From: a virus
Virus record (IMG/VR): IMGVR_UViG_3300045988_122854
Length of the DNA stretch: 64,000 bases
Direction: 5' to 3' (one strand)
The translations under genes and the position numbers were made by a program. The notes beneath the pieces are model-generated. The model ran no database searches, was not told where the DNA came from, and was given only the letters and a program-made list of their open reading frames with translations. Every line of letters starts with the position of its first letter. The first letter of the stretch is position 1. This document shows, one piece after another, positions 21-59,094 of the stretch.

Positions 21-102
21 CAAGAGGGCAGGGACTCGAACCCTGGTGGGTATTAACCGTCGGTTTTGGAGACCGATGCAATCGCCGCTATGCGACCCCC
101 TT
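21..102 (-). tRNA. tRNA with anticodon CCA (Trp-type by anticodon) and an unusually long 14-nt variable region; CCA tail encoded at 18-20
   Basis: Hand-folded cloverleaf on the minus strand. Acceptor AAGGGGG/CCCTCTT (one G-U pair). D-stem GCA/TGC with an 8-nt GG-containing D-loop. Anticodon stem TCGGT/ACCGA with loop CTCCAAA, giving anticodon CCA. T-arm CAGGG-TTCGAGT-CCCTG. Discriminator G. U8, A14 and A21 present. Confidence 0.7.
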
Positions 103-126
103 GTATAAAACAAGACCTTAACTTTG

Positions 127-196
127 TCCGGAAAATGGATTTGAACCATTAACTTAATCTTAAATGATTATGACCTAACCTTTAGTCTATTCTGGA
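127..196 (-). ncRNA. tRNA-like cloverleaf (possible pseudo-tRNA or aberrant tRNA) with a 6-nt anticodon loop and an A-C mismatch in the acceptor stem
   Basis: T-arm AATGG-TTCAAAT-CCATT is canonical. D-stem GACT/GGTC with loop AAAGGTTA. Acceptor TCCAGAA/TTCCGGA pairs 6 of 7. Anticodon stem TAATC/GATTA closes a loop ATTTAA of only 6 nt, so no anticodon can be assigned. Confidence 0.4.
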
Positions 197-3041: not shown

Positions 3042-3584
3042 TTATTTATTTAATTTTAATAAATAATAACAATTAGGACATAAATATTTATTATCATTTG
3101 TTTTAAAAAATGGAATATTCTATCCATTAGATTTAGACTTTAAACCACACATTTCACATATTTTATTATCCTATTGTACTATTGGAATATTTACCGTAAT
3201 ATCAGGTTCAAAAATATTAGTAAGATTATTAAATATTTTTTCACTATAATTTAAAATCAAATTTTCATCATTCTAATAATCATACTAACAAATCTAATAA
3301 CTTATCCAAATACAATCTTTTAAATTAGATAGATCTATTTTCTCTATCGGTATAATTGTATTAAAGTTTATTTCATTAACTTCTTTAAAATTTATTTTTT
3401 CTTTTAAAATATACTATACCTAATAAATAATAAATCTGTCTTTCCTAATAATACCTAACTAAAAATAAATAAATAAAACCCAAAAATCATAAATACTATT
3501 CGGATCAAACCTTAATAGAAATTCTTTTAATAAAGTCCAAAAGTCAGACTCTACCTATCCAAAATGATGATCGGTAAATCTCAT
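3042..3584 (-). CDS. Hypothetical 180-aa protein with a C-terminal zinc-ribbon-like CxxC...CxxC; contains 9 in-frame TAG codons
   Basis: Frame checked codon by codon: ATG at 3582-84 overlaps the upstream stop as TAATG; TAA at 3042-44. In-frame plus-strand cta (minus TAG) at 3555, 3459, 3420, 3414, 3294, 3285, 3273, 3171, 3120. No TAA or TGA in between. Confidence 0.5.
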
Positions 3585-3784
3585 TAGCTTTCTCCTTTAT
3601 CAGATTTATTAAAACAAAAATGTAAATATTTATTTAAATCAGGAAGATTACCTAATTTTGGAGGTACATTAAATAAATAAGGTTTATCTCCTTTAGTAAA
3701 ATCTAAAAAATTATTTAGAAGAAAATAAACTTTTTCTTTATATTCTTGATAAGTTTCAATCATAAATACTTTCTCCTTTTCCAT
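3584..3784 (-). CDS. Small hypothetical protein (66 aa)
   Basis: ORF with ATG at 3782-84; overlaps the upstream gene's stop in an ATGATTGA arrangement. Confidence 0.4.
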   Translation of the reverse strand: MEKEKVFMIETYQEYKEKVYFLLNNFLDFTKGDKPYLFNVPPKLGNLPDLNKYLHFCFNKSDKGES

Positions 3785-5852
3785 CTAAATAATTTAAAAA
3801 CCATTCATAAGTAGGCACATAACACAATTCATTATTAAGATAATTTAATAATGAATAAATTTCATTTTTAATATCATCAAAATTAGTTATACATTCTCCT
3901 CTTAAAAGATTAAACTCAATTTTCTAATTTTTAATATCTTCTATAATCTGTTTATCTAAATTACATAAATTAGGAATATTATTAAAATCTTCTTTATTAT
4001 TAGATAAATTATACATAGTATATAATATATAATAAATTAAAAGAATAATCTTTTCTAAAAAATAATTATTTTCATATCCATAAAAAGAAGAATCTAAATC
4101 ACTTATTAATTTTATTTCATTAATAATTCTATAAAGATTTCGTCTTAAAGTACTTTGTTTGCGGTTTTCATCAATATTTTCCAATTTCAAAATATCAATA
4201 AAATTAGCAAAAAATACAATTATTTTATTAATATATCCTGTAATTACCATATTAGAATTAGAATGAGATAAACAATTAGGATTATCTTCTAACTAAGTTA
4301 TATAAAGACCTAAATTCTAATCTTCTAACTCATAAGATTCACCATAAATATCGCATCTATCTAAGAATATACTATCTTCTCCAAAGAAAAATTTTGAATA
4401 TTTTATATTATTCTTATTAAGAAAATCTCTTTTAAGAATTAAATTAATCTTTTCAACTGATTTATCAGCATTAACTATTTTAAATACCCCAAAATTTTCT
4501 TTGCTATATTTTATTGAATTATATAAAATTTCTAAAACATTATCATTTGAAAATAAATCATCAGAATCCCAAAATAACACATATTTATTAAAAGAATATT
4601 CTAGTCCTAAATTGCGAGTTAGACCAGGCCCTTTTCGTTTTAAATTCTTAAAAAAGAAACAAGGAAAATTTGCTTCATCAAATACTTCAATAAGTTTTTT
4701 ATCATAGAAAGAATGGTCACTAATAAAATATACACAACAATCTTTTATAATTGTTTGGGTAGATAAATTATTATACAAATTAATAATTTGCTAATCATTC
4801 ATATTATAATAAGGTATTATAATATCCATTTTTCCATCAATAAAACGAGTAAAACATTTTTTTAAATAATAAGTATTATATCTAAATTCAATTGGGCATC
4901 TATTTTCTTTAAATAGCTAATAATTTTCTAAAAAATTTTCTTTATCATTAACTAATTTTAAATAAAAATCATAATCTCTAAAATAAGCATCTTCCATTGG
5001 AACTATAAATTCTGATTTTGTATCATAATATTTGTGCCAAATCCAAGAAGCTTCAGACATAGTCCCATCGCAATATCTACAAATATTTTTAGGTTTAAAA
5101 ATGAAATTATGTAAATCATCTAAACTATTTATATCCTCTAACTGCAAATAATCGCTTTCGTCTTCTGGGATATTTACATTATATTTCTTTCTATAAATAT
5201 CCAAGTGTGCAGAAAATGGACATATATAAATTTTATAATTTTTTAAAGTAAAACAAGGTAACTAATGCGGACATTTATGAAAATATACTTCATTTATATC
5301 AGTAGTTCCTGCTTCATTTACAAGCTATTGTCGCATAAATAATCTTGAATTATGATTAAAACCTAAACCATGACTGTCTAGATACTCTATCGCTTTATGA
5401 TCGGTATATTTTCCATAAGTAGTAACATCAAATATTACTCCCATATCTTTATATTCTTTCTCATGTTTAAAAGCATCTTGTAAATGACACCCATTGCTTA
5501 ATATTTTAATTTCCACCTTATCTTTTGGGAAAACTTCTCTAGCAATCTAACATATTTCAAATAATTTTGGATGTAAAGTAGGTTCTCCACCTAAAATCAT
5601 AAAAAGTTTTATATTTGGAATTTTTTTATAAGCAAAAGTAATCTGATTGCGGAAATCATCTAAATCAATATACCAAGGTTCTGCTAAAGGGGAAAAATGA
5701 TTACATCCTGCGCAGTTAAGATTACAATGATCTACAATATGCATTTCTAAACTAACCCCATCATAGACCGATTTCCATACTGGATTAGTATAAGGAGGAA
5801 TCCCTTGATAATTTTTAGTTCTATCTATTTCCATATTTATTCTCCAAAACAT
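3756..5852 (-). CDS. Radical-SAM (N-terminal) / family-2 glycosyltransferase (C-terminal) fusion, or two translationally fused genes, read through at least 8 in-frame TAG codons
   Basis: N-terminus has CNLNCAGC (CxxxCxxC) and GGEP. From about 4836 downward: MDIIIPYYN ... KGPGLTRNLG ... FWDSDD (GT-A fold, DxD motif). One continuous frame from ATG 5850-52 to TGA 3756-58. The only internal stops are TAG at 5547, 5325, 5262, 4917, 4791, 4317, 4293, 3924. Confidence 0.6.
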
Positions 5853-6396
5853 TTATAATATTTCTATTATAATTAACTAGTTCTTTTATTTGGTTATCTC
5901 TTTCCTACAAAAAACATCCCGTGCAAATTTCATTTATATCATTTAAATCACTATGAAAAAATTCACAACGATGTATTTTTCTATTTAACTATTCACAATT
6001 TTTATCACACTTTAAAATCTATTCTTCTTTATCGTAAATAATTGGATGTTCTTCTTCAAATCGTAAAGTTAAATATAATTTAAATTCTAATTGTCCCTAA
6101 CTTGAATATAACATTGTTCTATAAAAAATAGATTTTACTGTAGATTCAAATGTAAATTTTTGTTTTTGACTAAAAATTAACTCAATAATTTTTATATCTT
6201 TATATTCTAAATCTTTTAATTGACTATATAGATAATTTAATGAAGAATATTCTATATCATTTGAATTATTTACAATTTTGCAAAAAGTAATTTCTTTTGG
6301 AAAATTTAATCCAAAAACAATATCATTACATTCACGCTCGTCAAACTTTACTGTTCTTAGTAAAGTTTGACGAGCATTATATAAATTAATTAACAT
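5813..6396 (-). CDS. Cys-rich hypothetical protein (about 194 aa) with one in-frame TAG
   Basis: ORF 6097..6396 continues through TAG at 6097-99 into a CDKNCE...HRCEFFH...CTGCF segment. TAA at 5813. Overlaps the radical-SAM gene start by about 40 nt in another frame. Confidence 0.4.
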
Positions 6397-9599: not shown

Positions 9600-9640
9600 T
9601 TATATTATAAAACTCCTTTTTCTCAAAAGAATTAAGAACG

Positions 9641-10378
9641 CTATCTACCAGCGCCACTACGGTTTGTGCTATTAGAAGTATAAGCTCCTCTATTAGAACC
9701 TCTATAAGCACTTCTATAACCGTTATTACTACCATAATTAGAAGAACGATTACTATTATTACTACTATAATTAGAGCTTCTTACGCCATTATTACTTGAA
9801 TAATTAGCAGTATAATAGGTATAATTACTTGAATAATTTGAACTTCTATGACCATTATTACTTGAATAGTCTGAAGAGCGTTGAGCATTATTACTTGAAT
9901 AGTCTGAAGAGCGCTGAGTATTATTGCTTGTATAATAAGAACTATTATAACTATTATTACTTGAATAGTCTGAAGAACGCTGAGTATTATTGCTTGTATA
10001 ATAAGAACTATTATAACTATTATTACTTGTATAATCTGCACCACGATAACTATTATTACTTGTATAATTCGCTCCGTTATAGGCACAAATGCCATTTATT
10101 GTATCAAGTTTACTTCTAATTTCCTCTAAGGGGACTCGTTTCATAAGCTCACTAGCTCTTGGAGCGGTAAAATTAGAAAAAGTAGCCTAAGTTCCTACAT
10201 AAGAAACATTTCTTAAATTTTCAATTTCATTTTTTAAAGTAGTAATATCACTTTGTCTCGCATGACGCTCCCCATTTAAGGGAGCGGTCGTGCGAGTTTG
10301 AGAAAAACGAGTCTAAGCAGTATTTAAAGTATCATATAGAGCGCGAACATCACTCCATGAAATACGACTACCAGCCAT
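9641..10378 (-). CDS. Candidate RiPP precursor peptide: about 100-aa leader plus a Tyr/Ser/Asn-rich tandem-repeat core; 2 in-frame TAG in the leader
   Basis: ATG at 10376-78 preceded by AAGGAGAG at 7 nt. In-frame through TAG twice, into ...MKRVPLEEIRSKLDTINGICAYNG, then repeats of YTSNNSY / DYSSNN / RSSNYSSNN. The DNA shows 36- and 57-nt tandem repeats at 9780-10100. Lies directly upstream of two radical-SAM genes on the same strand. Confidence 0.55.
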
Positions 10379-26752: not shown

Positions 26753-27493
26753 TCATTTCTCCCATATCTTTTTACCTCCTCGCTTCTGCTTTCTCTTGGT
26801 CGCGGTGTCAATCGTCTTTCTATGGACGCTCCCGATCTTCGCAGTCGGACCATTTTTCATGAACTGATTCAAGTTTAAAGGGGCGGGGCCAAACACATCC
26901 ACACAAACATTCTTATGATAGATGTCCGTCTCTTTATGATTGTGGTCGTGGCCGTGAAGATCGAGAGCCCAGTCCTGCTTAATCGGTTCGTGAGAAAGCA
27001 TAAGTTTCTCACCAATAAGGAGCGCGCCATCATATACCTCGTCAAAAAGACCGTTATCTGCGGAAATCTCCCAATATTCAAAGGGAGTATGGAAATCAAA
27101 TCCCGAATCAATAGAATACTTACAATCAGGATAAAGACGCTTCATTTCCATAAGCGCTTCGTCCTTTTGATACTGATCCATAGGGAACTTTTTCTTGATG
27201 ATTTTGCGCTTATAGTTTTCAGATCCCGCGTCGTGGTTGCCTTTGATAAGAACCTTATAACCGGCGCGCAGTTTCCGCACATAGGAGATCGCACCTACGT
27301 CACCGAGATGAATTAATAGATCGCTTCGACCGCTCTTAGAATTAATTATTTTAACAATTTCTTCGTCGGAAGGACGATTATGAATTCCCTGATGAAGATC
27401 TTCGTCTCCAAAATGAGTATCACTAATAACCCAACAAGTTTGTAGATTTTTCCATCTATCTAAAAAACTTTCATAGACACCAGGTAAATTCAT
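26753..27493 (-). CDS. Calcineurin-like metallophosphoesterase (lambda PPase / NinI-like Ser/Thr phosphatase)
   Basis: ISDTHFG (DxH), LGDVG and GNHD motifs in canonical order. Confidence 0.75.
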   Translation of the reverse strand: MNLPGVYESFLDRWKNLQTCWVISDTHFGDEDLHQGIHNRPSDEEIVKIINSKSGRSDLLIHLGDVGAISYVRKLRAGYKVLIKGNHDAGSENYKRKIIKKKFPMDQYQKDEALMEMKRLYPDCKYSIDSGFDFHTPFEYWEISADNGLFDEVYDGALLIGEKLMLSHEPIKQDWALDLHGHDHNHKETDIYHKNVCVDVFGPAPLNLNQFMKNGPTAKIGSVHRKTIDTATKRKQKRGGKKIWEK

Positions 27494-27505
27494 AATTATT
27501 ACTCC

Positions 27506-28435
27506 TTAACAAATTCTAAAAGTTGTTGTATCCAATTTCAAATCATTAATTGATAATTTATCTAAATGAAAATATGGGATTCTAATTAACGGGATGTTAT
27601 TTTCTTTACACCATTGATTTTTAAAAGCATCATGTTCTTTTGTTTTTTCAAACTTTTCTAATGTATTCCAACCAGTTCCAGATTGATAATGCTATATTCC
27701 ATCAAATTCAATTAAATAAGAATTATCAATATAAAAATCAAATTTAGCTTTATGGTTAGTATCCTAAAATTTACAATTTTCAAAAGTTTTTTCACAAATA
27801 TACTAAATATTATGTTCTTTTAATAAAGAGATAATTTTTTCCTAACCTGCTGATTGTAAACAACCACAAGATTTACTTTGTCCTTTTCTTAAAGTAGTTC
27901 CTGATACAATTTTTTGATTGCCACAAGAGCATTGGCATAACCACATAGCAGTATTATGCTAATTAGATCCACTACGTTTTAACACTGTCCATCGACCAAA
28001 AGTTTGTCCTGTTAAATCAATTGTTGTAAGTTCACCGATCTTTTTATGAATATAACAACCACATGAAATAACGGCGCCACTTACTAAACCATCTTTACGA
28101 ATACTTTTAATAGTTCCACAATCACACTAACATTTCCAATAAGTATGCCCTTTTCCTTCTGTTCTATCATATCCTAAAACTGTTAGCATACCGAATTTTT
28201 TGCCTGTTAAATCTTTTAACAATTTTAAACGTTTCTAACATCCGCATGAAGTGGTATGATTTGAAGTTAAATGAGACGCAGAAACTACTGTTTTATTACC
28301 ACATTCACATTGGCATAACCAATATGGTCCGTTCCTTGGGTCTTCAACTCGATATAAAACTGTTAATTTTCCAAAATGCTAATTAGTCAAATCTTTTGCT
28401 CGGCCTACTGGAATCTATTTATAAATTTTTTCCAT
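27506..28435 (-). CDS. Three zinc-finger repeats plus a C-terminal DUF559/Vsr-like PD-(D/E)xK endonuclease domain; 9 in-frame TAG (homing-endonuclease-like)
   Basis: ATG 28433-35 with AAGGAG upstream; TAA at 27506-08. Three repeats of LTVL...YW.CQC.CG...SCGC. C-terminus KFDFYIDNSYLIEFDGI[TAG]HY resembles the DUF559 FDF...IE.DGxQH motif. No minus-strand ORF of 60 aa or more is called here, because TAG occurs every 60 codons or fewer. Confidence 0.5.
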
Positions 28436-30020
28436 AAAATCACTCCTTTTCTATTATATGTATAAATAGAAAAGGATAAAATAATAAAATTTGTCCGAAA
28501 TCGCCAACCTGATTATTCAACCGGCCTCCTTAAAATGTGTAAGCATTAAATTTATACATATAAAACTCGCCATCCATAAGAAGAAGTCTATCAGCTTCTT
28601 TTCGATGATCAATCATCCACCAGCCAGGCTTAGGAAGAGGGAGATCGAAGTATTCGATTCGTTGCGTTTCCATAATATCTTCTTCAATTGCGCCTTGAAG
28701 GAAAGCGAGGTAAAGTTCTTGCGCTTCTGCTTCCGAAATGTTGGCGAAGGTCCAAGACTTACTGGTCATTTCATCTTCGATTTTATAACAAGTAATTTCT
28801 TTCATAAGTCCTCCTTACATTTCAACCGCATCAACGAAATCAATGAAAACATCATCGGCGACGTTATTCATCATATTAAGATAAGAAGAGAATCTCTTAG
28901 TCCAATCGCCGGTCATCTCGCCGTGGTAGTGATACCAATCATAATCGGAATCTTTCTGAATTGCTTCAAACTGATGTTCCATAAGGCTATCATCGACCAT
29001 ATCTCGACAATACTCCATAAACATTTCCTGCATATCGGCTTCGGACGCATTCAGGAAATAGAAATTATGGTCTCCGGCCGTATCACAAAGAATACCAATG
29101 GAATGAATTTTAATATTAGAATTAGAAGTAGTCATAATTTTTATTTCCTTTCTTTACTTTATATATATATTATATATTATTTTTTATAAAAAATCAAAAA
29201 AGGATTTGCGGTTTGCGCAAATCCTTTTAAAGATTAGAGAACGGGAGCATAATTATAATAAATAATCATATCTTCCAATGCATCTTTGTAAAGTCTTGTA
29301 TCAAATTTATGACAGTGGAATCGTTTCTCGACATTCTCTTCGATTGCGGACATAGCGATTTCGAGAGCGTCAGATTCACTTACGTTTGTAGCACAGTAAA
29401 TCTCATCATAAGGCGCGTCATAAACGAATACGACAGGCATATGCTTCATATATTATTCCTCCATTAATTGATTTTACCCAAAATTTTTGTTATAATATAT
29501 TTAGAAATTAAAAGATTTCAATCGCGTTTTCAAAAAGATTGAGGAATTCATCAGCCACTTCGGAAGTTGCGAGAAGGCTTGTAGAAGAACCGCCATACCA
29601 ATCAATATGAATGCGCGTGAGTGGACTACCGCCCGCCTCCGCAATCTCATCCGCATACTGTTCAGAGTCAACCGCGGAAAAGCTAACGCTATTGATGTTG
29701 TTAGTATTGATAAGATACTTAATACCGCGGAAGTTGCGTAAAATTACAGTCATATAAATGCCTCGTCAGATACAAAATTTTTGAATTGCTTTATAACTGC
29801 GGTGCCATAGGGATCACCATCGGAAAAAGTGTATTCATAATGAGATTTATCTCTCATATAGATTTCAAGGTCTATTCCAGGAGTCTCGGTAGAGATATCA
29901 TCATCATCTGAGTTATCCATAGTGATGCGATTAGCCACGATCGAGATAATTTCGTTTATGTTAAGAAAAACGAAGTCGCCGTTAGACATTTTTAAATAAA
30001 TTAATTCACCTTTGTTCATT

Positions 30021-50661: not shown

Positions 50662-51141
50662 TTAAACCCACTCGCTAAACAGGTCGCGGATAACGTCTTC
50701 CCGCTCATCGTCGGGAAGCTGGTCAATCCCACATTCATAGGTGGTCAGAACGGTCAAGCGGTTGCCCACGCTGGCGTTCTCGCGTTCAAACTTGGCGCGC
50801 TCGCCCTCGCCGTGGAAGTAAGCAACATAATCGTAGATATCACCGAACTCATTATCCATGACGCTATACTCTACCACGATAAAGCGCGTGGTGTTCCATA
50901 CACTCGCAATAACTGCAAGGTCGCTGGCGAGTTCCTGCTCATAGCGCAAGCATTTAAGCGCGGTCGCAATATTGACCTTTTCTTGTTTGGCGCTGGCTTT
51001 TAACCATGTGCCCGTCATAGCTTGATATTTGGTCATGTGGTCAGTCACTTTGCGCTGACCCTCGCGCACCATATCGCGCGCCTTTTCTGCCATGTTGTTG
51101 ATATCTGCGCAAGTGTAAGAAGTGAGATTGATGATTTTCAT
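50662..51141 (-). CDS. Hypothetical protein (159 aa)
   Basis: Intact ORF. Confidence 0.45.
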   Translation of the reverse strand: MKIINLTSYTCADINNMAEKARDMVREGQRKVTDHMTKYQAMTGTWLKASAKQEKVNIATALKCLRYEQELASDLAVIASVWNTTRFIVVEYSVMDNEFGDIYDYVAYFHGEGERAKFERENASVGNRLTVLTTYECGIDQLPDDEREDVIRDLFSEWV

Positions 51142-51202
51142 AGTATGACCCTTTCCGCGCTATCGCGCTAATACGTTATTATTCTTCTGAATGGGAGAGA
51201 GG

Positions 51203-51583
51203 TTAACCTCTCTCCGCAATTTCCGTTTCCTGCTTGGCGCTCGCCCATGCGATGCTTGTGCGGGTGTTGCCTGCCTTGCGATATTCCTCTGCGCCTGCCG
51301 GAGTGCCGCCTAACGCGAGGGCATACGCCTGCCAGTCAATAGCGCCTTTTGCCGCCGTTTCGGTGTAAACAACGTGCTTGACTTCCCCTTGCTTTTGCAA
51401 AGAAAGCGTCAGAAAATCGGACTTTTCACTTGCCTTGTATTCCTTGCCCAAGTCCGCAAATAAATCTTTTGCGGCGGCTTTTGCGGCTTTTTCAGCCTTG
51501 CTTGCAATGTCCAGTGCTTCTTTTGCGTCAAGGTAGTTAATAAGCACGGCGCGCTGTTCATTCTTAATATCGACTTTTTTCAT
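51203..51583 (-). CDS. Ala/Lys-rich hypothetical protein (about 126 aa)
   Basis: Start at MKKVDIK. Confidence 0.4.
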   Translation of the reverse strand: MKKVDIKNEQRAVLINYLDAKEALDIASKAEKAAKAAAKDLFADLGKEYKASEKSDFLTLSLQKQGEVKHVVYTETAAKGAIDWQAYALALGGTPAGAEEYRKAGNTRTSIAWASAKQETEIAERG

Positions 51584-54135: not shown

Positions 54136-55323
54136 ATGGCTGAAACATATTATTGTGAAAAATGTAATCGTACAATGAATGGCACGGAATTCTATTCATC
54201 TAATAATTTAGAAAAATATCCTAATGATGGTAAATTTCCTGTGTGCAAAAAATGTATGACAATGCACGTCGATAATTGGAATCCAGATACTTATTTATGG
54301 ATTTTACAAGAAGCGGATGTTCCTTATGTTCCAGATGAATGGAATAAATTAATGGAAAAATATGGGCGCGATCCGCAGTCTATGACCGGTATGACAATTC
54401 TTGGACGTTATTTGTCAAAAATGAAACTCAAATAGTTTAAAGATTATCGTTGGAAAGATACAGAATTTTTATAGTAGATGGCGAATAATAAATTAGAACA
54501 AACTATGAAACGTCAAGGATATGATGCTCAATAGATTGCAACCGCTATTGAAAAAAGTTCTATTGCTATTCCAGAAGGAGAACTAAAAGAGCCGGTTTAT
54601 GCTCCACCACCTAATGCCCCTACGGAAGATTATTTTGCACAATAGAGTGGGGAAGTGGAACAAGAATTAGACTTAACTGATGAAGACCGCACTTATTTAA
54701 GACTTAAATGGGGTAAGACTTATAAACCTGAAGAATGGGTTAAGCTTGAATAGTTGTATGAAGAAATGATGGCTTCTTATGATATTCAAGGCGCCGGACA
54801 TAAAGATACGCTAAAATTAATATGTAAAACATCTTTAAAGGCAAATCAATTGATCGATATTGGTGATATTGAAGGTTTCCAAAAGATGAGCAAAGTATAC
54901 GATAGCTTAATGAAGTCTGGTAAATTTACCGCTGCTCAAAACAAAGCAGAATCAGGTGAATTTGTTGATTCAATTGGCGAATTAATTGAATTATGTGAAA
55001 AAGAAGGATATATTGAAAGATATTATGTTGAATAGCCACATGATAAAGTGGATTTAACTATTCAAGATATGCAACGTTATACTCGCACTCTTATCGAAGA
55101 TGAAACTAATATTAGCACAATGGTAGAAAAGGCTTTGCGCGAAAATGCCAAAGAAGATGAAGAGAAAGCAAAGAACGCGGAAAGCGATATCGTTGATGAT
55201 GCTGATTTAAGTATTGAAGAACTTGAAAAAACTATTAAAGATAGTGATTACGCGGATTTTGAGGAATTTAAAGAATAGGAATCTGCACAAGATAATGAGT
55301 TCTTATAGGGCTTGGATAAATAA
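54136..55323 (+). CDS. Hypothetical protein (about 395 aa, about 9 in-frame TAG); by position a possible small terminase subunit
   Basis: ORFs 54136, 54754 and 55048 are all in frame 1. TAA at 55321. N-terminal CEKCN...CKKCM zinc ribbon. Confidence 0.4.
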
Positions 55324-57062
55324 TGGCATTACAAGATTTACTGTAGTTAAGTGATAGCCGTAGAAAAATAGGGTTATCACCGGAGCGAGTAGAAGCGGTA
55401 ATGCCCACTATTCGCAAATACGTTGCCTTTTGGAGAGAATATCCTGATTTATTTGTAGATTTTATGGTGCGAGGAAGACGCACTGAAATAAAAGATGGAG
55501 AATTTAATTTTTATTTTTATTAGAGAGTATTTCTCCGTTCTGTTATGCGTTATTAGTATGTTTACGCGGTTTTCCCTCGTGCTTATTCTAAATCATTCTT
55601 GTCTGTTATGGCATTAATGATTAGATGTATTTTATATCCTGGTGCGCATTTGTTCGTTACTTCTGGAGGTAAAGAGCAAGGTGCTAGCATTCTTCATGAT
55701 AAAGTTCAAGAAATATGTGAACTTATTCCAAGCTTTAATCGAGAAATTGATTGGAGCCGAGGAAAAACTCTTGAAGGAAAAGATAAAGTTAGATATGTGT
55801 TTAAAAATGGTTCAGTTTTGGATAACCTTGCAGCTCGTGAAAGCACTCGTGGTTAGCGTCGTCATGGTGGACTAATGGAAGAATGTGTTGGTATTGATGA
55901 TGCCATTCTTCGTGAAGTTATTATTCCTGTTATGGCAATTTCTCGTAGAGCTAAAGATGGCACTACCAATGAACAAGAGCCATTAAACAAATCACAAATC
56001 TATATTACTACTGCTGGTTATAAGGGCACATTCCCTTATGATAGACTTATTGGTTTCTTAGTTCGTATGGTAACTTAGCCTGATCGTTGTATGGTATTAG
56101 GTGGAACCTGGCGAACTCCTGTTGCAGTAGGATTACAAAGTAAAACATTTATTACTGACCAAAAGAATGAAGGAACTTATAATGAAGCGTCATTCGAACG
56201 TGAATATGAATCTAAATGGTCAGGAACGGTCGAGGATGCTTTCTTTAATGGAGAGCATTTTGATAGAAATAGAAAACTGTTATAGCCTGAATATGAAGCT
56301 TCTGGACGTGCGGGCGCGCAGGCTTATTATGTGCTTTCTGTAGATGTAGGTCGTAAAGGATGCGATTCAGTAGTTTGTGTATTTAAAGTAACACCACAAG
56401 CTCAAGGTCCAGCTATTAAATCATTAGTAAATATGTATACTATGTCAGATGACCATTTTGAAGATTAGGCTATTAAATTAAAGAAATTATTTTATAAATA
56501 TAAAGCTAAAACTTTGGTTATAGATGGTAATGGTTTAGGTATTGGACTTTTAGATTATATGGTAAAATCTCAAAATGATGAAGATGGTGAATTTTTACCT
56601 GATTTCGGTGTTGAAAATGATGATGATGGATATTATAAAAAATATCGCACACCAAATACTCAATTTGATGCTATGTATGTTATTAAAGCAAATGCTCCAA
56701 TAAATACTGAATGTCATGCTAATGCTTAGACTCAATTACAGGCGGGTAAAGTAAAATTCTTAATAGATGAGAGAACAGCTAAAGAAAAATTATTAGCTAC
56801 TCAAAAAGGTTCAAAAATGACTCCTGAACAAAGGGCAGATTATTTAAAACCATTTACTTTAACCTCCATATTAAAAGAAGAAATGATGAATTTACGCGAA
56901 GAAAATGAAGGTATTAATATTATCCTAAAACAGGCGAATCGCGGAATTCGTAAAGATAAATTTTCGGCTTTTGAATATGGATTATATTATTTAAAACTTG
57001 AAGAAGATAAAAAGAAAAAACGTAAAAAGTTTAATGCGGCTGATTGGTGCTTTTTAAATTAA
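55323..57062 (+). CDS. terL: Terminase large subunit (about 579 aa, multiple in-frame TAG)
   Basis: ORFs 55599, 55875, 56091, 56514 and 56817 are all in frame 0. ...ARESTRG[TAG]RRHGGL... and a C-terminal RNase-H-like block LVIDGNGLGIGLLDYM. Lies immediately upstream of the portal gene. Confidence 0.55.
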
Positions 57063-57074
57063 GGAGGGTGGAAA

Positions 57075-57431
57075 ATGCGTGCTTCAAGAGGAGAAATTAA
57101 AATTGAAGAAATCTTAGAAGAAGCAGGACTACCTTTTAAAATGGAATATATCTTTCCAGATTTAAAAAGCCCAAGCGGGCGTCCGCTTCGTTTTGATTTT
57201 GTTATATTTGATGATGATGGAAAAATTGATTTCATTATTGAGTATTAGGGAAAATAGCATTATGAAGCCAGTTCTAAATTTGGCGGAAAACGCGGTTTAT
57301 ACCAGTAGCAATATAATGATAATCAAAAAAGACGTTTTTGCGCTTTACATGATTTTAGATTAATAGAGATTCCATATACCGACGAAAACCTTATTTCTTA
57401 TGATTATATAATGAAATTAGCAGGTTATTAA
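57075..57431 (+). CDS. Small DUF559/Vsr-like PD-(D/E)xK endonuclease (about 118 aa, 4 in-frame TAG) inserted between terL and the portal gene
   Basis: PLRFDFVIFDDDGKIDFIIEY[TAG]GK[TAG]HYE, homologous to the C-terminus of gene 27506..28435. Confidence 0.5.
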
Positions 57432-57444
57432 AGGAGGTGGAACT

Positions 57445-59094
57445 TTGGATACGCAAGATCGTAATGATTAGATTCATGCTAAAGGTTTTGATATTTATAA
57501 TGGTCGTTATGAATATAATTATAATGACACTATGGATTATGCCAATAGAAAAATAAAAGTTGGCACAAAAACTTTAGATGATGCTATTTTAAAACTTGGT
57601 GATTATAGTAAGATTAGATACCCAGGTCAAACTCGTATTATCACGAAACCTGATGTGCTTTGCGCGCTTGCGGAAAGAGATTTAAATGCTTTACGATATA
57701 TTTCTAATTTTTATTATGACATAAGTGGTGTATATCAACGAGTTTGTAATTATGTTGCTTTTTTATACCGCTATGATTGGTATATTGCAGCCGAAACTTA
57801 TGATGATAGTGTAAAAGAAGAAAAAGTTTTAAAAGATTTTTATAGAATGTTGAATTATTTTGATAATAGTTATATTAAAAAGATTTGCGGAGATATTGCT
57901 TTACAAGTCGTTAAAAATGGATGCTATTATGGATATATAGTTCCTTCAGAAAAAAATCTAATTTTACAAGAATTGCCAGTTAGATATTGTAGAACACGTT
58001 ATAGTGTAAATAATACCCCAGTTGTCGAATTTGATATGCGATTTTTTGATACTTTTAGAGATATGAATTACCGCTTAAAAGTATTAAAATTATTCCCAGA
58101 AGAATTTGCTAAAGGTTATGTTTTATACAAGCAAGGAAAACTTGCTCTAGAAGAAGCGGTTGGATGCTAGCATACTGGTAGTTGGTATGTTCTTGAGCCA
58201 GAAAATTGTATTAAATTTAATATTAATAATAGTGATGTTCCTATTTTTGTAAATTCCATTCCTACTATTATGGATTTAGATGCAGCGCAAGATCTTGACC
58301 GCAAGAAACAAATGTAGAAGTTGCTTAAAATTTTAGTCCAAAAGCTCCCAATGGATAAAAATGGTGATTTGATATTTGATGTTGATGAAGCTAGAGATAT
58401 CCATAATAATGCCGTTTAGATGTTATAGAGGGCTATTGGAGTAGATGTTTTAACTACATTTACTGATGTAGATTCTATTGATATGTCTGATAAGAATACT
58501 ACTACAACGACAGATGATTTAGCTAAAGTTGAACGTAGTGTTTATAATTCATTAGGTATTTCATAGAATTTATTTAATACTGATGGTAATATGGCTTTAG
58601 AAAAATCAGTATTAAATGATGAATCTACAATAAGAAGTTTAATTTTATAGTTTAATATATTCTTTAATAGGATTATTGAAAAAAAGAGTAGTAATAAAAA
58701 ATATAATTTTAGATTTTATTTATTAGAAACTACTCAAAATAATTATCAAACACTTTCTAAAATGTATAAAGAACAAGCGCAAATGGGACAATCAAAACTA
58801 TTGTCTTAGATTGCTCTTGGACATTCGTAGAGTTTTATTCTTAATGCAGCTCATTTTGAAAATGAGATTTTACATTTAAGTGAAATTATGATTCCTCCTC
58901 TTATGAGTTCTACTATGGGTAGTGAAGATATTTTGGGTTTAAAAGGTTCATCATCTAATAATAAAACTCAAAATAATTCAGGAAGCTCAGGTTCTGGAAC
59001 TGCTAAAGCTTCTAATGGCGAGGCAGGACGTCCGGAGAAACCTGATGATTAGAAAAGTGAAAAAACTATTCAAAATAAAGAAGCAATGAAATAA
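57445..59094 (+). CDS. Portal protein (about 549 aa, about 10 in-frame TAG)
   Basis: AAGGAGGTGG RBS then TTG 57445 (or ATG 57532). Single frame to TAA at 59092. Size and position after terL. Confidence 0.5.

Follow-up and report, generated by a model that had tools for sequence, protein, structure and literature searches.

A mobile Vsr-like homing-endonuclease cassette and a fixed, probably domesticated relative in a phage that reads TAG as glutamine

Can two related nuclease genes in one phage genome represent a mobile cassette and a long-fixed gene, two career stages of the same kind of selfish nuclease? This question is raised by a 64,000-nucleotide (nt) stretch of viral DNA, IMG/VR record IMGVR_UViG_3300045988_122854 (here called the window, meaning the entire stretch analyzed), which carries a repeat-containing nuclease gene, gene A, and a shorter homolog, gene B, located between the genes for the terminase large subunit (terL, protein TerL) and the portal protein (Table 1). 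An initial annotation had described both as homing-endonuclease-like genes. From sequence comparison and structural models, we consider it likely that gene A is an active-looking mobile homing endonuclease and that gene B is a fixed nuclease domain serving the phage. The homing-endonuclease label thus stands for A, which occupies a polymorphic site with a co-converted flank, and falls for B, which is fixed and has no DNA-binding domain.

Gene A proved to be present as first described, with nine TAG codons and three repeats followed by a nuclease motif, and lies on the minus strand, which had not been stated earlier. TAG occurs at codons 7, 19, 67, 103, 159, 198, 211, 224, and 248 of its 309 sense codons, accounting for 9 of its 17 glutamine codons. 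The three repeats of ~60 amino acids follow the pattern DLTGxxFGxLTVL...W.CQC.CG...SCGC, with 19 invariant positions and 38-45% pairwise identity, and the W, CxCxCG, and SCGC elements are invariant in each repeat across 47 homologs. AlphaFold models were built on database proxies (P0001, 97% identical to A; P0121, 99% identical to B), and in the former each Zn-cysteine module forms a three-strand-plus-helix unit with a predicted local distance difference test (pLDDT) score of ~90. The number of modules varies from three to five among A homologs, as expected for a modular array that reads DNA. The motif KFDFYIDNSYLIEFDGIqHY follows the third repeat, and the nuclease domain aligns with B over its whole length (27% identity, E = 2e-10), giving A a bipartite architecture of DNA-binding region and nuclease in which the three Zn-cysteine repeats would serve as the binding module. 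For the whole A proxy, pLDDT was 90 and the predicted template modeling (pTM) score 0.52; since the protein is made up of several small domains in series, the SH3, Tudor, and kinase matches that Foldseek returned for the entire model are meaningless.

By fold and catalytic residues, A belongs to the Vsr-like/EDxHD nuclease lineage, and both A and B have the Vsr-like variant of the PD-(D/E)xK fold. Database searches found 5653 homologs of A and 3134 of B, so neither is a chance reading frame. In PHROGs, the repeats of A match phrog_374 (E = 5e-61), and both proteins match phrog_9084 (“homing endonuclease”), phrog_559, and phrog_7140 (“intron encoded nuclease”) at E = 1e-16 to 1e-29. The B model gave I-Bth0305I as its best global Foldseek match, with a pLDDT of 95, and its fold is not HNH (beta-beta-alpha-metal). 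The label of DUF559/Vsr-like nuclease therefore survives in its second half, through PHROGs and the I-Bth0305I match, and is not confirmed in its first, as Pfam DUF559 matched neither protein at E <= 1. The PD-(D/E)xK relationship, for which a check had been proposed, was borne out by the fold of B, with Pfam DUF2726 close to its threshold. Against PDB chains, a sequence search with A gave chance matches only and a profile search gave a weak match to T7 endonuclease I (E = 2).

The homing endonuclease I-Bth0305I offers the reference for the catalytic residues: its EDxHD set comprises Glu170, Asp196, a variable Asn208 (His64 in Vsr), His213, and Asp222, and the family has an extra acidic residue two positions before x (PMC3239194). 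By motif order, the putative counterparts are E7, D41, E56, Q58, H62, and D82 in B and (Q198/E199), D233, E243, D245, H249, and D269 in A, with x being Q58 in B and D245 in A. These equivalent residues are invariant within the A orthologs and within the B orthologs, in the latter despite synonymous codon turnover, and the recoded TAG58 of B falls at the variable x position.

In the families of both A and B, TAG exchanges with CAA or CAG in the same alignment columns, including the invariant Gln of the DGxQH motif, which indicates that TAG is translated as Gln throughout. Phass-1, a related gut phage placed by NCBI in the “Caudoviricetes code 15 clade”, has been shown by its authors to read TAG as Gln with suppressor tRNAs. 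That A is instead a pseudogene or chance frame in which TAG marks real stops, or a DNA-binding regulator rather than a nuclease, we regard as very improbable. Under the standard code the frame does contain nine in-frame TAGs, a conserved Glu is replaced at codon 198, and records of Bacillus phages DK1-3 call repeat proteins of this kind “transcription factor”. However, no TAA or TGA interrupts the 309 codons of this 29%-GC DNA, the TAG-to-CAA/CAG exchange occurs at an invariant Gln, and the nuclease residues are invariant in 47 homologs. The ratio of nonsynonymous to synonymous divergence (pN/pS) of ~0.27-0.46, below 0.5 in both the Zn region and the nuclease domain, identifies A as a working gene under purifying selection, and its presence in some relatives and absence from others, coupled to a co-converted flank, marks a homing element rather than a regulator.

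This polymorphism became visible when loci were gathered around the conserved neighbor of A, a phosphoesterase (PE) gene that is its presumed target, yielding eleven close relatives (L005-L015). Gene A stands at the same site in two of them (L005 and L006; 97% and 100% identity), and the site is empty in eight (L007-L011, L013, L014, and L015), with the upstream gene’s stop, TAAGGAGG, and the PE start only ~17 nt apart. In the eleventh, L012, a paralog with 38% identity occupies the same junction (4096-4968) and uses the resident ribosome binding site and start context. Further paralogs (41-42%) lie at other intergenic sites in L007 (2044-2739) and L014 (5918-6847, downstream of PE). Several lineages of A-type endonuclease therefore circulate in the clade.

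Comparison with the A-less L007 maps the boundaries of the inserted DNA. The upstream flank of the window is 99-100% identical to L007 as far as TAAGGAGG, A is then entirely absent from L007, identity falls to 55-64% over the initial ~175 nt of PE, and it returns to ~100% for the remainder of PE from TTAATTCATCTCGGTGA (LIHLGDVG) onward; the L007-type allele carries TTTTAAGGAGGATATAAATGATTCCTGG and AATAGCAAAGCCGGTCGGAAAGATGTATTAATTCATCTCGGTGATGTAGG in the junction and PE 5' region. A low-GC island (22-33%) spans ~27300..28500 between flanks of 38-45% GC, and the divergent PE 5' segment is AT-rich like A. In four other phages, A orthologs at 56-74% identity are always directly upstream of a Metallophos gene in otherwise differing neighborhoods; a homolog at 50% identity lies elsewhere. 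Two of these four phages, L097 (4769-4942) and L098 (3807-3950), hold short open reading frames (ORFs) that are cut-down old PE 5' ends (codons 1-51 and 1-42; E = 3e-12 and 1e-7) just upstream of the endonuclease gene, with a complete PE after it. These remnants are the footprint of insertion inside the target gene. The identity break, the constant Metallophos neighbor, and the remnants define a unit of ~1.2 kb (leader, endonuclease gene, and replacement PE 5' end), and they indicate that it would have entered at or near PE codons 50-58 and left PE intact.

Taken together, the break in L007 and the remnants in L097 and L098 are what intronless homing with a protective, co-converted flank should produce. 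Intronless homing is established in T-even phages for the free-standing endonucleases SegF, SegG, and MobE. Like these, A sits beside its presumed target gene, is polymorphic among close relatives, and is inherited together with a divergent flanking tract; unlike them, A is Vsr-like rather than GIY-YIG or HNH, its cassette contains a replacement for the target’s 5' end, the displaced fragment is kept in two relatives, and cleavage by A is a prediction. No Rfam intron or other RNA was found near A or B, and both lie between complete genes. The 84-nt leader of A gave two candidates that we rejected: a sub-threshold Rfam match to the KRAS 3'UTR (E = 0.65), which is the leader hairpin by chance, and a possible relic of the displaced PE 5' end, whose 14-nt match was equaled in 25 of 500 shuffles and is marginal.

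The presence of TAG codons had been taken to mean that both genes are resident and not recent arrivals, and for A this conclusion was wrong. An A-less genome with nearly identical flanks means that A was recently gained or lost in this lineage, and its composition, 29% GC against 38-42%, favors gain. Nor do the TAG codons date its arrival, since A orthologs and paralogs carry them in all eight loci: in each, the A-family gene is a low-GC island with one to nine TAGs whose direct neighbors almost always have none. The cassette circulates within the recoded phage population and is already recoded on arrival. To judge from these comparisons, gene A is a mobile free-standing homing-endonuclease cassette that arrived recently, with a sporadic presence at a defined site (two filled, eight empty, one held by a paralog) and a sharp, co-converted identity break in PE.

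For the action of A we infer cleavage, target site, and timing from this architecture. We expect the three tandem Zn-cysteine modules to recognize a long stretch of DNA and the nuclease at the C terminus to cleave it; in a co-infected cell, A would cleave an A-less allele near the PE 5' end, around codons 50-58, and repair from the A-bearing genome would copy the ~1.2-kb cassette, comprising the leader, A, and the AT-rich PE codons 1 to ~58. The replaced 5' end would keep PE intact while rendering the new allele uncuttable. The TAG codons, possibly with a hairpin at the ribosome binding site, may further confine translation of A to a late phase in which an amber suppressor is present. The window phage is partially recoded, with TAG-as-sense joining many split late genes (terL, portal, and others) and most genes of the long minus-strand block free of TAG. 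If the suppressor acts late, as has been proposed for recoded phages, A, with TAG at more than half of its Gln codons in a TAG-free block, would be completed only then. The hairpin has 12-15 bp (CCUUUUCUAUU ... AAUAGAAAAGG; 28440..28479, minus strand), buries the ribosome binding site of A within the leader, and recalls the way in which translation of some T4 endonuclease genes is controlled; we treat it as a lead and not as a result.

Gene B presents a different picture. It was confirmed as a standalone homolog of A between terL and portal, beginning 12 nt past the terL stop and ending 13 nt before the portal gene, and each gene has its own AAGGAGG ribosome binding site in operon-like spacing. 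B contains the motif FDFVIFDDDGKIDFIIEYqGKqHYE and consists of the nuclease domain alone, lacking the DNA-binding half of the bipartite architecture. B might be thought to supply a nuclease lacking in TerL; TerL had no sequence match in PDB or Pfam, and by eye it would keep typical motifs of a nuclease domain.

The terL-portal junction had been proposed as a classic insertion point for free-standing endonucleases, to be compared among relatives for the presence or absence of B. We gathered 80 related IMG/VR loci with TerL, of which 79 reach beyond terL and are informative. B lies directly upstream of portal in all 79, always with ~118 amino acids, so no B-less junction was found among them. 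MT836163 (70% identity), Enterococcus phage H1 (50%), and Phass-1 (40%) have it as well. Two distant standalone orthologs (50% and 45%) come from phages that use the standard code, where TerL identity drops to 42% and 40%, and lie in the same terL-portal slot within a YonG/YonD/YonB-type module. An exhaustive search with representatives yielded 11,878 family clusters: those above ~50% identity are standalone B orthologs, and those below are mostly the C-terminal domain of multidomain proteins of 230-460 amino acids. Many database fragments end at residue 57 or 60, because gene callers that use the standard code stopped at TAG58 or TAG61.

The junction is nonetheless a genuine insertion hotspot. 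A GIY-YIG gene lies between terL and B in L060 (5802-6533), a GIY-YIG/NUMOD gene lies between B and portal in L073 (6165-6836), and in L080-L082 (L080:5735-7269) two metabolic genes are inserted, encoding a 359-amino-acid protein of unknown family and a cytidylyltransferase-like protein; B is kept in every case. The suggested insertion point is therefore real, while B itself is no sporadic insert. As a separate observation, TerL matches in Enterococcus phages EF1 and EF5 (MF001358 / MF001361) fall into three pieces with an annotated HNH homing endonuclease between them and the B ortholog kept downstream, which suggests that terL is interrupted there by an intron or endonuclease.

Table 1. Features of the two nuclease loci, with positions in the window
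Feature	Coordinates	Strand	Details
Gene A, free-standing Vsr/EDxHD-type homing-endonuclease gene	27506..28435	-	309 amino acids; 9 TAG (Gln), TAA stop
Zn-cysteine module 1 of A	28238..28393	-	residues ~15-66; W39, C41, C43, C45, G46, S63, C64, G65, C66 invariant in 47 homologs
Zn-cysteine module 2 of A	28055..28216	-	residues ~74-127
Zn-cysteine module 3 of A	27860..28021	-	residues ~139-192
Nuclease domain of A	27509..27853	-	residues 195-309; D233, E243, D245, G246, Q248 (TAG), H249, D269, K272 invariant; pLDDT 91-96
Cassette leader	28436..28519	-	84 nt; starts right after TAAGGAGG that precedes PE in empty-site genomes
PE, phosphoesterase gene (Metallophos family), presumed target of A	26753..27493	-	no TAG codons; 42% GC
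AT-rich replacement 5' segment of PE	27318..27493	-	codons 1 to ~58; 55-64% to A-minus alleles; boundary +/- ~25 nt
terL	55323..57062	+	579 amino acids; 8 TAG; PHROG terminase large subunit; 47% to annotated H1 TerL; stop then AAGGAGG and B’s ATG
Gene B, standalone Vsr-like nuclease domain	57075..57431	+	118 amino acids; TAG at codons 58, 61, 78; E7, D41, E56, Q58 (TAG), Q61 (TAG), H62, D82 invariant in orthologs
Portal gene	57445..59094	+	549 amino acids; 10 TAG; TTG start; phrog_2739, E = 1e-81

Conservation of B could reflect the protein, a DNA signal, or continued selfish spread. In all 17 comparisons nonsynonymous divergence (pN) increased from B to TerL to portal, with B well below portal, and synonymous divergence (pS) was saturated. 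Low pN at saturated synonymous sites places the constraint on the protein rather than on a signal in the DNA, and a pac-site-type signal as the cause of the conservation was accordingly rejected. Saturation to the same degree as in the neighboring genes also shows no trace of recent horizontal spread. Decay is what one would expect of a selfish endonuclease gene once it is fixed. Against this background we regard it as unlikely that B is an ordinary selfish free-standing homing endonuclease at fixation, conserved through continued homing or marker exclusion in co-infections. Such a reading draws on the membership of B in a nuclease family of homing endonucleases, on its intact catalytic residues, on the location of B in a real hotspot for endonuclease genes, and on Enterococcus phage records that label its ortholog “homing endonuclease”. 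Yet no empty junction appears in at least 79 relatives, nor at TerL identities down to 40%, the homing members of the family have a DNA-binding domain where B has none, and instead of decay, nonsynonymous divergence lies below that of TerL. As B has no DNA-binding domain, whether lost or never acquired, and is held more tightly than the terminase, domestication is the most economical reading: B is probably a fixed, selected, domesticated gene. Since it lacks both the bipartite architecture and the sporadic distribution of homing endonuclease genes, B is better named a Vsr-like nuclease of that lineage than a homing endonuclease.

Does B cut DNA? Vsr-like folds include non-catalytic RNA-binding RAP domains, and B could by analogy be a nucleic-acid-binding or structural adaptor without DNA cleavage. 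We consider this less likely still than a selfish B, because E7, D41, E56, H62, and D82 stay constant through synonymous codon turnover. The Gln at position 58 does not argue for it either: the x position of EDxHD enzymes is variable by definition (Asn in I-Bth0305I, His in Vsr), and the intron-encoded “VSR homing endonuclease” in terL of Enterococcus phage 113 has the same EYQGxQH subtype (EYQGIQHYE...FGG, behind three Zn-ribbon repeats), so that Gln at x does not preclude a functional homing enzyme.

The nearest known systems place A and B at different distances from classical homing endonucleases. The EDxHD family includes free-standing members such as Hef of T4-related phages, so that intron or intein residence is optional (PMC3239194), and both A and B lie outside introns and inteins. 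Compared with I-Bth0305I, A has three Zn-cysteine modules as its DNA-binding region rather than NUMOD or helix-turn-helix elements, B has no such region and is fixed rather than sporadic, and both use TAG as Gln. The group I intron “VSR homing endonucleases” of Enterococcus, Staphylococcus, and Bacillus myoviruses (for example, ORF171 of phage 113) share the nuclease subtype of B (EYQGxQHYE...FGG...D..KR), combine three tandem Zn-ribbon-type repeats with a C-terminal nuclease, and are tied to the terminase gene region. These proteins are ~310 amino acids long, intron-encoded, and sporadic, whereas B is a 118-amino-acid catalytic domain, intergenic and universal in its clade; the Zn module of A (CxCxCG...SCGC) is of another sequence type than theirs. 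Relative to the Escherichia coli very-short-patch repair endonuclease Vsr (1cw0), identity is only 14%, the context is a phage late operon or mobile cassette rather than DNA repair, and T:G mismatch recognition has no support.

B, a small nuclease gene conserved within a terminase-portal module, is most likely useful to the phage in its late packaging operon, and a packaging-linked nuclease role is our leading guess, suggested by where it lies, by its late-operon expression, and by HNH terminase cofactors as a precedent. We infer that B became fixed between terL and portal in the ancestor of a large phage group, was kept by strong protein-level selection, and may work with the packaging machinery as a nuclease, helping either to form ends or to debranch concatemers. 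The closest analogy is provided by HNH endonucleases of the HK97 gp74 type, which are encoded beside terminase genes and act as packaging cofactors (PMC3592412, PMC12967558). Like these, B is a small (~120 amino acids), conserved, standalone nuclease-fold protein of the terminase-portal module with a domain of homing-endonuclease type; unlike them, it has a Vsr-like PD-(D/E)xK fold, is absent from some phages of the same TerL type, and is known here from sequence and model. T4 endonuclease VII, which associates with the portal protein, is a second precedent. A broader proposal, which we find possible but doubtful, is that B is a domesticated, Vsr-fold component of the packaging module in a large group of Firmicutes siphoviruses, a counterpart of the HNH cofactors or of portal-associated debranching nucleases, and that, separately, amber codons delay selfish endonucleases such as A until late, even in unrecoded early blocks.

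Several observations weigh against this assignment of A as an active mobile endonuclease and B as a packaging-linked nuclease. Pfam DUF2726, a family of the PD-(D/E)xK clan, matches B at 23.6 bits and A at 15.1, below its gathering threshold of 24.7, although some orthologs and longer homologs do exceed the threshold. The first catalytic Glu position of A is Gln198, encoded by TAG, where more distant orthologs have GAA or GAG (Glu). Homologs with Gln at this position have an acidic residue one or two positions further (Glu199 in the window and P0003, Glu200 in P0024), and the adjacent Glu199 may or may not compensate. The target site of A is read solely from the cassette boundaries. The hairpin is kept in the near-identical L005 and L006 and not in more distant orthologs, and the z-score for the fold of the whole leader is modest (-1.79). 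B is missing from Geobacillus E3 and Alicyclobacillus KKP_3916, two phages with the same type of TerL, so that one large branch acquired it long ago and the packaging module does not universally include it. Finally, the link of B to packaging comes solely from position, late-operon context, and analogy, and the non-catalytic RAP domains noted above share its general fold.

The basic call is an ordinary one: this is a known enzyme family, relatives already carry the label VSR homing endonuclease in phage annotations, and the novelty is modest because both the family and the general phenomena have been described. What this genome adds is a pair of stages side by side. For A, the boundaries of the cassette are mapped, a target can be proposed, and the replaced 5' end of the target gene spares the host gene; B is a testable candidate for a new packaging-associated nuclease. 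Its putative domestication can be tested because the cultured Enterococcus phages H1, EF1, and VRE9 carry a B ortholog in the standard code. TAG-bearing islands of the A family among mostly TAG-free neighbors further bear on recoding as a timer of expression and on the movement of mobile genes among recoded phages. Since standard-code gene callers cut genes of the A and B type at TAG, such genes are systematically missed or fragmented in annotations.

Judged by TerL, the closest relatives of the window phage are MT836163, an unannotated human-gut contig (60% identity), three large siphoviruses of Enterococcus, H1, EF1, and VRE9 (47%), Geobacillus virus E3 (46%), and Phass-1. No suppressor tRNA with a CTA anticodon was found in the 64,000-nt window. 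A tRNA at 21..102 (minus strand) is confirmed by Rfam (49 bits), and ARAGORN calls it tRNA-Trp (anticodon CCA; 85 nt) with a long variable arm, unusual for Trp; a second ARAGORN call at 126..196 (minus strand) has an abnormal two-base anticodon, “tt”, and is without Rfam support. PADLOC defense models gave no matches and NCBIfam nothing meaningful. A 248-amino-acid ORF at 9632..10378 (minus strand; three TAG codons) consists in its C-terminal two thirds of low-complexity repeat (YTSNNSY..SSDYSSNN..). Composition is strongly mosaic: a gene at 50662..51372 (minus strand) reaches 52% GC, with the rest of the genome mostly at 25-42%, and a TAG-rich cluster at 3042..6396 (minus strand; GC 20-23%) lies beside TAG-free genes of 25-31% GC. 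The cluster encodes a 698-amino-acid protein with a radical-SAM-like CNLNCAGCNH motif and a 180-amino-acid protein with TAG at 9 of its 10 Gln codons, and looks like another compositional island.
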